From assembly GCF_000026545.1 (NCBI RefSeq), contig NC_011601.1: a DNA stretch of 64,000 bases; one strand, 5' to 3'. This DNA comes from Escherichia coli O127:H6 str. E2348/69. Lineage in GTDB: Bacteria; Pseudomonadota; Gammaproteobacteria; Enterobacterales; Enterobacteriaceae. The position numbers are program-made. Shown here piece by piece: positions 46,701-49,700 of this stretch (the stretch's first letter is position 1; every line of letters begins with the position of its first letter).

Positions 46701-49700
46701 TCGGCCATATCTTCGGCTTCAGACTCGCTGAGCGCGTAACTGTTTGCGCAAACGGCCATCAGGCTGCCGAATAACACTGTTCTGAAAAACGTCTTCATTG
46801 CTTCTACCAGGGGCTTAAAGAAGATAAACGTTAGCACACTGCGAGCGAGGCGACGACCATTATTGTCGATTAAATTGTGTCTGCGACTTGACCTTCCCGT
46901 AAGGGGAAGGACTATGCTCAACGTTTGATTTTGTTTCGCCTGCTTAAGAATAAGGAAATAACTATGCAACGTCGTGATTTCTTGAAATATTCCGTCGCGC
47001 TGGGTGTGGCTTCAGCCTTGCCGCTGTGGAGCCGCGCAGTATTTGCGGCGGAGCGTCCAACGTTACCAATCCCTGATTTGCTCACGACCGATGCCCGTAA
47101 TCGCATTCAGTTAACTATTGGCGCAGGTCAGTCCACCTTTGGCGGGAAAACCGCAACTACCTGGGGCTATAACGGCAATCTGCTGGGGCCGGCGGTGAAA
47201 TTACAGCGCGGCAAAGCGGTAACGGTTGATATCTACAACCAACTGACGGAAGAGACGACGTTGCACTGGCACGGGCTGGAAGTACCGGGTGAAGTGGACG
47301 GCGGCCCGCAGGGAATTATTCCGTCAGGTGGCAAGCGCTCGGTGACGTTGAACGTTGATCAACCTGCCGCTACCTGCTGGTTCCATCCACATCAACATGG
47401 CAAGACCGGGCGACAGGTGGCGATGGGGCTGGCTGGTTTGGTGGTGATTGAAGATGACGAGATCCTGAAATTAATGCTGCCAAAACAGTGGGGTATTGAT
47501 GATGTCCCGGTGATTGTTCAGGATAAAAAATTTAACGCTGACGGGCAGATTGATTATCAACTGGATGTGATGACCGCCGCTGTGGGTTGGTTTGGCGATA
47601 CGTTGCTGACCAACGGTGCAATCTACCCGCAACACGCTGCCCCGCGTGGCTGGCTGCGCCTGCGTTTGCTCAATGGCTGTAATGCCCGCTCGCTCAATTT
47701 CGCCACCAGCGACAATCGCCCGCTTTATGTGATTGCCAGCGACGGCGGTCTGCTACCTGAACCGGTGAAGGTGAACGAGCTGCCAGTGCTGATGGGCGAG
47801 CGTTTTGAAGTGCTGGTGGAGGTTAACGACAACAAACCCTTTGACCTGGTGACGCTGCCGGTCAGCCAGATGGGGATGGCGATTGCGCCGTTTGACAAGC
47901 CGCATCCGGTAATGCGGATTCAGCCGATTGCCATTAGTGCCTCTGGTGCTTTGCCAGACACATTAAGTAGCCAGCCTGCGTTACCTTCGCTGGAAGGGCT
48001 GACGGTACGCAAGCTGCAACTTTCTATGGACCCAATGCTCGATATGATGGGGATGCAGATGCTGATGGAGAAATATGGCGATCAGGCGATGGCCGGGATG
48101 GATCACAGCCAGATGATGGGCCATATGGGGCACGGCAATATGAATCATATGAACCACAGCGGGAAGTTTGATTTCCACCATGCCAACAAAATCAACGGTC
48201 AGGCGTTTGATATGAATAAGCCGATGTTTGCGGCGGCGAAAGGGCAGTACGAACGTTGGGTTATCTCTGGCGTGGGCGACATGATGCTGCATCCGTTCCA
48301 TATCCACGGTACGCAGTTCCGTATCTTGTCAGAAAATGGCAAACCGCCAGCGACGCATCGCGCAGGCTGGAAAGATACCGTTAAGGTAGAAGGTAATGTC
48401 AGCGAAGTGCTGGTGAAGTTTAATCACGATGCACCGAAAGAACATGCTTATATGGCGCACTGCCATCTGCTGGAGCATGAAGATACGGGGATGATGTTAG
48501 GGTTTACGGTATAAAAAGACCGTATTCGGAAATATGCCCGGATCTCTCCGGGCATTATGGTTACTTCACATCATCCGGCAGCGCATAAGCCACAATATAG
48601 TCGCCCATCTTCGTACCAAATGAACCGTGACCGCCTGCGGAGATCACCACATACTGCTTGCCATTCACTTCATAGGTCATTGGCGTAGCCTGACCACCCG
48701 CTGGTAAACGACCCTGCCACAGTTTTTCACCGTTGCTCATGTTGTAAGCGCGCAGGTAGTTATCTGCCGTAGCGGCGATAAACAGCACGTTACCCGCCGT
48801 GGAGATTGGCCCGCCAAGCATCGGCATACCCATATTGAACGGCACCGGTACAGGCATCGGGAATGGCATACTGTCCTGTGGCGTACCAATACGTTTCTTC
48901 CACACCACTTCATTGGTTTTCAGATCCAATGCTGAGATATAGCCCCATGCTGGCTGTTTACATGGCAGACCAAACGGTGAGAGGAACGGGTTGAGCGTGA
49001 CACCATACGGTACACCGTACTGCGGCTGGATGCCGGATTCCGTACCCGTGCCTTTGGCATCTTTCGGCTGTTCCATCGGGTTGCCTGGACCGCGTGGGAT
49101 CAGTTTCGAAACAAACGGCAGTGCCATTGGGTTGGCAATCGCCACTTCACGATTCGGATCAACGGAAATCCCGCCCCATTCGAACATCCCCAGGTTACCC
49201 GGGAAGACCAGCGTACCCTGTTCAGATGGCGGGGTGAAAATGCCTTCATAGCGCATCTGGTGGAACATCACGCGGCACACCAACTGGTCAAACATGGTGG
49301 CTCCCCACATATCCGCACCGCTCAAATCTTTCGTCGGACGGAAGCTCAGTTCAGAAAACGGTTGAGTAGGGGTAACGTAATCACCTTTCGCTGCGCCTTG
49401 CGGCACCGGTTTTTCCGGTGCCGGAACCACCAGTTCGCCATTACGACGATCGAGCACAAAAATGTTGCCGGTTTTCGCCGGAGCATAAATGACCGGCACT
49501 TTCTGACCATTAACGGTGATGTCCGCCAGCGTCGGCTGTGCCGGAAGATCCATATCCCACAGGTCGTGGTGAACGGTCTGGTAGCTCCACGCCAGTTTCC
49601 CGGTAGTGGCATTCAGCGCCAGAATCGAGCTGGCATAACGTTCCTGTTCCGGTGTGCGGTTACCACCCCAAATATCTGGCGTGGTGACGCCCATCGGCAG

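Follow-up and report, generated by a model that had tools for sequence, protein, structure and literature searches.

A methionine-rich segment of 46 codons, located in the 64,000-nucleotide stretch of the Escherichia coli O127:H6 strain E2348/69 genome analyzed here (hereafter the window; contig NC_011601.1 of assembly GCF_000026545.1), is almost certainly the Met-rich insert of the periplasmic multicopper oxidase CueO, which in this strain has the length found in K-12, keeps every copper ligand and is encoded by an ordinary, most likely neutral allele. Published work already covers the insert, the extra copper sites in it, its partly disordered state and the way it varies from species to species; given how intensively this enzyme has been studied, the E2348/69 version of such a textbook feature is of little consequence.

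Identity of the gene and its locus

The segment lies inside a gene with the following features.

46964 to 48514, plus strand: cueO coding sequence, 516 codons plus stop (1551 nt), multicopper oxidase CueO
46964 to 47047, plus strand: predicted Tat signal peptide, residues 1-28, with the twin-arginine motif RRDFLK, delimited by the motif and by the start of the mature chain

This gene is cueO, the orthologue itself. Its sequence matches the cueO annotated in E2348/69 (RefSeq 'multicopper oxidase CueO', WP_001189653.1) at 100% identity, the same identity being found over the 1551 nt to cueO in three E2348/69 or O127:H6 assemblies, and it shares 99.5-99.7% identity with cueO of CFT073, Nissle 1917, ABU 83972, ATCC 25922 and similar strains. 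A copy is carried by 5424 of the 5426 complete E. coli genomes. The gene order in the RefSeq annotation is speD-speE-yacC-cueO-gcd-hpt, of which speE-yacC-cueO-gcd matches MG1655. In the ORF scan the start was placed at the ATG at 46964 (MQRRDFLK...), an upstream TTG being rejected as start. Three Pfam domains were found, all above their curated cut-offs: PF07732 Cu-oxidase_3 (residues 55-165), PF00394 Cu-oxidase (221-293) and PF07731 Cu-oxidase_2 (396-516). The known CueO ligands of the T1 copper (H443, C500, H505 and M510) and of the trinuclear cluster (H101, H103, H141, H143, H446, H448, H499 and H501) are present, all 12 of them, and are invariant or nearly so in an alignment of 82 homologues. 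The N-terminus is the same as in K-12, where residue 29 is the first of the mature chain in the crystal structures (1KV7 and others); the Pfam TAT_signal model matches residues 1-20 with E = 2.9e-4 and 21.1 bits, under its curated cut-off of 22.7.

Composition and structure of the Met-rich insert

The insert, delimited by translation, by its methionine density and by its being inserted relative to most homologues, comprises a helix followed by a loop.

48026 to 48163, plus strand: Met-rich insert, Met355-Gly400
48032 to 48091, plus strand: Met-rich helix, residues 357-376, with D360 (Cu5), M358 and M362 (Cu6), and M364, M368 and M376 (Cu7); helix from the structural model, ligands as listed in PMC11494321
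48092 to 48163, plus strand: flexible Met/His/Gly loop, residues 377-400, length-variable between species, recognized by low pLDDT and by crystal disorder

The first-pass annotation had placed at 48026-48165 a Met/His-rich loop over the substrate site. Translation of this interval on the plus strand yields exactly the 46 residues that had been quoted, but their codons end at 48163, and an end at 48165 takes in two extra bases. Methionine occupies 14 of the 46 positions versus 15 of 470 (3.2%) elsewhere in CueO, with a binomial p of 1e-10 for at least 14 methionines, and no other 46 consecutive residues of the protein are as Met-dense as Met355-Gly400. The Met-rich segment is therefore real and far beyond chance. 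Histidine is found at 5 of the 46 positions, a weak enrichment (p = 0.03).

An AlphaFold2 model, built from an 82-sequence alignment, is beta-rich and has a mean pLDDT of 92.9. It predicts a strand at 347-355, a long helix at 357-376 and a short helix at 381-388, followed by coil, and the lowest confidence of the mature enzyme falls at 381-400 (block mean pLDDT 67 and 66). The helix and the poorly predicted stretch agree with the published description, in which a Met-rich helix spanning 357-369 gives way to a loop that most CueO crystal structures leave disordered and that 3OD3 alone resolves (PMC6155172). The insert covers the T1 copper site and bears the extra copper sites Cu5, Cu6 and Cu7 (PMC11494321, PMC12041951, PMC6155172), as the binding of extra copper expected for the segment would have it. 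Its position over the substrate site was likewise well described, but a helix and then a flexible loop are more than the loop that had been envisaged. The ligands of Cu5 are M355, D360, D439 and M441, those of Cu6 are M358 and M362, and those of Cu7 are M364, M368 and M376 (PMC11494321); every one of them is present in the CueO of the window.

Function of the insert and proposed mechanism

The biochemistry of CueO as a cuprous oxidase has been worked out on the K-12 enzyme and on CueO of Hafnia alvei (PMC11494321, PMC12041951). Oxidation of Cu(I) takes place at a single substrate site, Cu5, which lies where the insert meets domain 3 (PMC11494321). [quoted passage not shown] Activity on chelated Cu(I) correlates with how many methionines the domain has and how they are arranged (PMC12041951), and loss of the entire domain had, under the conditions tested, hardly any effect on resistance to copper in vivo (PMC11494321).

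By extension from the work on the K-12 enzyme, we infer that the E2348/69 allele would operate as follows. CueO would be exported by the Tat pathway and, in the periplasm, oxidize Cu(I) to Cu(II) with concomitant reduction of O2. The Met-rich helix (around 357-376) and the flexible Met/His/Gly loop (around 377-400) would overlie the T1 copper and block bulky phenolic substrates, and the insert together with domain 3 would form the substrate site Cu5 (M355, D360, D439 and M441). Cu(I) bound at Cu5 would be converted to Cu(II), its electrons reaching the trinuclear cluster by way of the T1 copper and reducing O2 there. The many solvent-exposed methionines would hold Cu(I) transiently and hand strongly chelated Cu(I) over to Cu5.

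Comparison with K-12 CueO and frequency of the substitutions

Two codons bear on the question of whether the allele departs from that of K-12.

48158 to 48160, plus strand: codon 399, AGC (Ser), GGC (Gly) in K-12; no other residue of the segment differs from K-12
47972 to 47974, plus strand: codon 337, CAG (Gln), CTG (Leu) in all other sampled E. coli; lineage-private and outside the Met-rich segment

The first-pass annotation had suggested that the allele of this strain might differ from the reference, and the alignment to K-12 shows that it does: the two are not identical, although within the segment the sole difference is G399S and the length is unchanged. K-12 CueO (b0123, NP_414665.1; PDB 1KV7, 1N68, 3OD3 and 3NT0) has in common with the CueO of the window the locus yacC-cueO-gcd, the 516 residues, the insert length and the copper ligands, and differs from it by six substitutions (P121S, S191N, S271N, L337Q, G399S and A464T, K-12 residue first), of which only G399S lies in the insert. 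Between MG1655 cueO and the gene of the window, the 6 amino-acid differences are accompanied by 51 nucleotide differences, 45 of them synonymous, and by no indel. Likewise, the crystallised K-12 CueO aligns gap-free over all 516 residues, with 6 differences (about 99% identity). The Met-rich segment itself contains 3 nucleotide changes relative to MG1655 and the single amino-acid change, and its length and all of its Met, His and Asp residues are the same as in K-12. The serine at 399 is located beside His398, at the C-terminal end of the flexible loop and near the return of the loop to domain 3. Since no Met, His or Asp is gained or lost and the site is in a disordered loop, G399S is most likely functionally neutral in the CueO of E2348/69.

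In order to count alleles, 55-nt megablast queries were centred on each SNP, such that every 28-nt seed word had to include the variant base. The resulting counts are lower bounds, 131 cueO-carrying genomes having matched neither version of position 399. The S399 query matched 1084 of 5426 complete E. coli genomes (about 20%) and the K-12 G399 query 4209 of the same 5426, so that between them 5293 of the 5424 cueO-positive genomes are covered. Carriers of S399 among the matches listed include CFT073, Nissle 1917, ATCC 11775 and ST131, and the ST80 allele also has S399. Accordingly, S399 is a common lineage allele and not a strain-specific one. For position 337 the picture is the reverse: the Q337 query matched 3 of 5426 genomes, all of them E2348/69 or O127:H6, versus 5400 genomes for the L337 query, from which it differs at one base. 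L337Q, 18 residues upstream of the segment, is the only change private to the E2348/69 lineage. In the AlphaFold2 model, residue 337 falls in a high-confidence coil linking domain 2 to domain 3; each of the 12 close relatives aligned has a hydrophobic residue (L or M) there, and across the wider family this linker position is without conservation.

The same pattern is seen when individual alleles are compared. The cueO of CFT073 is 7 nucleotides and one residue (L337) apart from that of the window, and the CueO proteins of CFT073, ATCC 11775, ST80 and ST131 all carry S399, while Q337 is private to E2348/69. In ST131 CueO an additional change in the loop, Ile388, leaves one methionine fewer, and a further loop substitution, D391, was found in a cluster representative (P0001). 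A literature search on natural cueO allelic variation, or on its link to B2, returned nothing relevant.

The best surviving alternative to a neutral allele is a functionally distinct one, in which G399S, L337Q or both would alter loop dynamics, the recruitment of Cu(I) or maturation, and thereby confer a lineage-specific copper tolerance. A subtle effect on loop dynamics is conceivable for a substitution in a flexible, copper-recruiting loop that adjoins His398, all the more as the number and arrangement of methionines correlate with the activity on chelated Cu(I) (PMC12041951); as for L337Q, a polar residue replaces a hydrophobic one that is L or M in 12 of 12 aligned relatives, and does so only in the E2348/69 lineage. 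However, neither substitution hits a Met, His or Asp ligand, and position 337 belongs to a linker between domains for which the wider family shows no conservation. Moreover, deletion of the whole domain barely affects copper resistance (PMC11494321), which makes it unlikely that a Gly-to-Ser change in the loop matters, and with S399 in about a fifth of the genomes and 45 of the 51 differences in the gene being synonymous, the variation looks like ordinary lineage polymorphism. We therefore regard a distinct function as improbable, and it is equally improbable that S399 and/or Q337 have a measurable effect on the dynamics of the loop, on how chelated Cu(I) is recruited or on maturation that depends on copper. 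Were this the case, differences in copper tolerance between lineages, in the gut or inside macrophages, would owe something to the CueO allele.

Length of the segment within E. coli

It is very improbable that the Met-rich stretch is prone to slippage and polymorphic in length within E. coli, with the strain of the window as a length variant. Such a possibility is suggested by the short reiterated peptide motifs of the loop and by the Citrobacter freundii alleles of 539 and 544 aa, which are one HGNMN unit apart. Against it, the 9 intact E. coli alleles that were compared all have a cueO of 1551 nt, and there is no gap relative to K-12. Tandem Repeats Finder, applied to 47900-48300, returned no array, and hence there is no DNA-level slippage tract in this interval. 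Furthermore, a 200-nt query across the segment matched in a single piece and with at least 95% identity in 5430 of 5431 E. coli records, and exactly 200 nt were spanned by all 39 full-coverage rows among the matches listed. BLAST identity bands of this kind rule out indels larger than about 9 nt, while smaller in-frame indels would not show; within this resolution, no indel of more than about 9 nt was found in the Met-rich insert of any credible complete E. coli genome.

The sole outlier is strain L37, with 87% identity and 50% coverage in a copy annotated as a pseudogene. In its alignment, mismatches and 1-nt indels, about 160 in all, are scattered over nt 639-1254 and nowhere else. We considered and rejected the possibility that it represents a natural divergent allele, dense scattered 1-nt indels being typical of assembly noise.

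Length variation between species

Between species the length of the insert does vary, as had been anticipated from general knowledge of CueO: Citrobacter has 3 to 28 additional residues in the loop, and the corresponding region ranges from 4 to 78 residues over 111 homologues. CueO has 539-544 aa in C. freundii and C. portucalensis and 519-521 aa in C. amalonaticus. The Citrobacter proteins share 83-87% full-length identity with the CueO of the window and have a nearly identical Met-rich helix, M355-M368 being unchanged, but differ in the loop, to which extra units of the HGNMN or NM(G/D) type are added, all after residue 389. In the 12 close relatives M355-M368 is invariant, and substitutions elsewhere in the helix stretch are limited to 369-371, 373 and 377. 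Where close genera differ in length, they do so solely in the disordered loop, beyond residue 389.

On a wider scale, an HMMER scan of 1.84 billion cluster representatives yielded 1061 homologues at E <= 1e-30. Of these, 117 near-full-length representatives were aligned, with R349/L353 and I410/N411 as anchors, and 111 had both anchors. The region between the anchors, from L353 to I410, measures 4-78 residues in these 111 homologues with a median of 9, and contains at least 5 methionines in 19 sequences and at least 10 in 8. The corresponding 56 residues in the CueO of the window, set against this median, identify the segment as a genuine insert, limited to certain lineages and variable in length and composition. 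Three sequences, the CueO-like metagenomic P0009 and P0010 (470/471 aa) and P0002 (500 aa), were examined as candidate variants of insert length and rejected, given that their deletion or duplication sits in domain 2; all three are single-contig sequences and probably artefacts.

Three-domain multicopper oxidases without the insert, such as FtsP/SufI (2UXT), CotA (1GSK) and the bilirubin oxidases, have the cupredoxin fold in common with CueO, and the true oxidases among them also possess its T1 and trinuclear-cluster ligands. In contrast to CueO, they lack the insert, around which their HMMER matches are split in two, and most representative homologues have just 4-20 residues and 0-2 methionines between the anchors. 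CueO of H. alvei (PDB 8R4F; PMC12041951) resembles the protein described here in its architecture, its Cu5 site and the location of the Met-rich domain over the T1 copper. Its domain is nevertheless larger and has more methionines, and it reportedly oxidizes chelated Cu(I) more efficiently (PMC12041951). G399S, the M388I substitution of ST131 and the loop expansions of Citrobacter could be used as natural constructs for studying the tuning of Cu(I) recruitment by methionine number and loop length.

Hardly any credence can be given to the segment being a chance or wrong-frame artefact of a real gene on the minus strand, since the 108-aa ORF that exists there (47981-48307) faces a plus frame that is continuous with a 516-aa protein 6 residues away from a crystallised enzyme, a methionine enrichment with p = 1e-10, an M355-M368 stretch invariant in 12 close relatives and a RefSeq annotation that has only cueO at these positions. 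This ORF, recovered in the ORF scan and wholly contained within cueO, was dismissed as a shadow of the ATG-rich cueO coding sequence.

Flanking elements and additional observations

Two further elements were noted on either side of cueO.

46888 to 46918, plus strand: putative CueR-type promoter, recognized in the sequence as TTGACC (46888-46893), a 19-nt spacer and TATGCT (46913-46918)
48534 to 48555, strand not assigned: G+C-rich hairpin ATGCCCGG-atctct-CCGGGCAT in the 46-nt spacer between the convergent cueO and gcd

The arrangement at 46888-46918 is presumably that of the copper-induced, CueR-dependent (MerR-family) type of promoter known for copA and cueO, and the assignment is a putative one. 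A perfect 7-nt inverted repeat, CCTTCCC-N5-GGGAAGG, occupies 46892-46910, in the promoter spacer. A scan for sigma-70 promoters with spacers of 16-18 nt found none upstream of cueO, because the 19-nt spacer of the MerR type lies outside this range.

The hairpin between cueO and gcd is kept in 5 of 5 aligned strains. Being devoid of a T-run, it was not called in the terminator scan, and it may or may not act as a terminator. In K-12 a 155-nt insertion containing REP elements is found downstream of cueO; in E2348/69 this insertion, and with it the REP elements, is missing.

A mobile context for cueO was also encountered: in IncY P1-like plasmids from pigs, the gene is located between two copies of ISVsa5. 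A literature search on plasmid-borne or IS-borne cueO gave nothing relevant. The yad fimbrial operon of E2348/69 contains annotated pseudogenes, and four matches to Rfam sRNA families are located elsewhere in the window.

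Substitutions in CueO and variation of its Met-rich loop

In the CueO allele of E. coli O127:H6 str. E2348/69 a single substitution is lineage-private, and it is situated outside the Met-rich insert:

Window 47972-47974: L337Q codon (CTG -> CAG), in the CueO linker between domains 2 and 3

Glutamine at position 337 was found in 3 of 5426 complete genomes, against leucine in 5400, and close relatives carry either leucine or methionine at this position. By these counts, L337Q is private to the E2348/69 / O127:H6 lineage. The flexible Met-rich loop carries further natural substitutions, at codons 388 and 391: Met388 is replaced by isoleucine in the cueO allele of an ST131 strain (strain 5392, locus L004), which reduces the methionine count by one, and a G391D substitution is present in P0001, the database cluster representative.

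Several other cueO sequences are aberrant. In strain L37 (NZ_CP034589.1, 1434-2966; locus L002) the gene is annotated as a frameshifted pseudogene; 1-nt indels and mismatches are densely scattered in it and confined to nt 639-1254, a pattern typical of an unpolished long-read patch and not of genuine decay. Three E. coli-type CueO proteins of metagenomic or NCBI origin (P0009 and P0010, 470/471 aa; P0002, 500 aa) display in domain 2 either a deletion of 26-45 residues or a duplication of 47 residues, P0002 being also truncated at the C-terminus. Since a single contig stands behind each, faulty assembly is the probable source of these differences; none of the three proteins is altered in its Met-rich insert.

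Plasmid-borne cueO

A K-12-type cueO was detected on 19 plasmids in PLSDB, one of which carries the following region:

NZ_CP116983.1 (pE6474.2), 6584-12201: ISVsa5-flanked cueO region (locus L012; also H112-H114)

This 98.5-kb IncY plasmid, P1-like and with phage genes, originates from pig faeces, and two ISVsa5 (IS4-family) transposase genes flank its cueO, an arrangement that looks like a composite transposon having captured the chromosomal gene. Near-identical plasmids of ~99 kb occur in E. fergusonii that came from pooled pig faeces. A literature search for plasmid- or IS-borne cueO found no paper.

The cueO-gcd spacer and other features of the window

Window 48515-48560: cueO-gcd spacer, 46 nt

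The 46-nt spacer is common to E2348/69, ATCC 11775, O111 and ST131. It is longer in CFT073 (77 nt), K-12 (201 nt) and one ST80 strain (256 nt); the additional length in these three stems from insertions of REP-like palindromic units (GCCTGATGCG...CAGGC, TGTAGGCCGGATAAGGCG...) that follow the shared hairpin.

Four Rfam matches were found in the window, the last three at gathering score:

15341-15430 (+): PssrA ('plasmid-encoded Shigella sRNA A'), 105 bits
21076-21145 (+): STnc40
21549-21624 (+): naRNA4
32900-33013 (-): tp2

The PssrA match falls exactly on the chromosomal ftsA-ftsZ junction, which suggests that the family model captures dcw-cluster sequence and not a plasmid-specific RNA. STnc40 and naRNA4, the latter a REP-derived nucleoid-associated RNA, match close to the secA-mutT region; these two and tp2 are unrelated to cueO.

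The yad chaperone-usher fimbrial operon (window 59513-62638, - strand) contains three genes flagged as pseudogenes in the RefSeq annotation of E2348/69:

adhesin gene: frameshift
yadL: frameshift
fimbrial subunit gene: internal stop

The chaperone gene of the operon, immediately outside the window, is likewise flagged by RefSeq.
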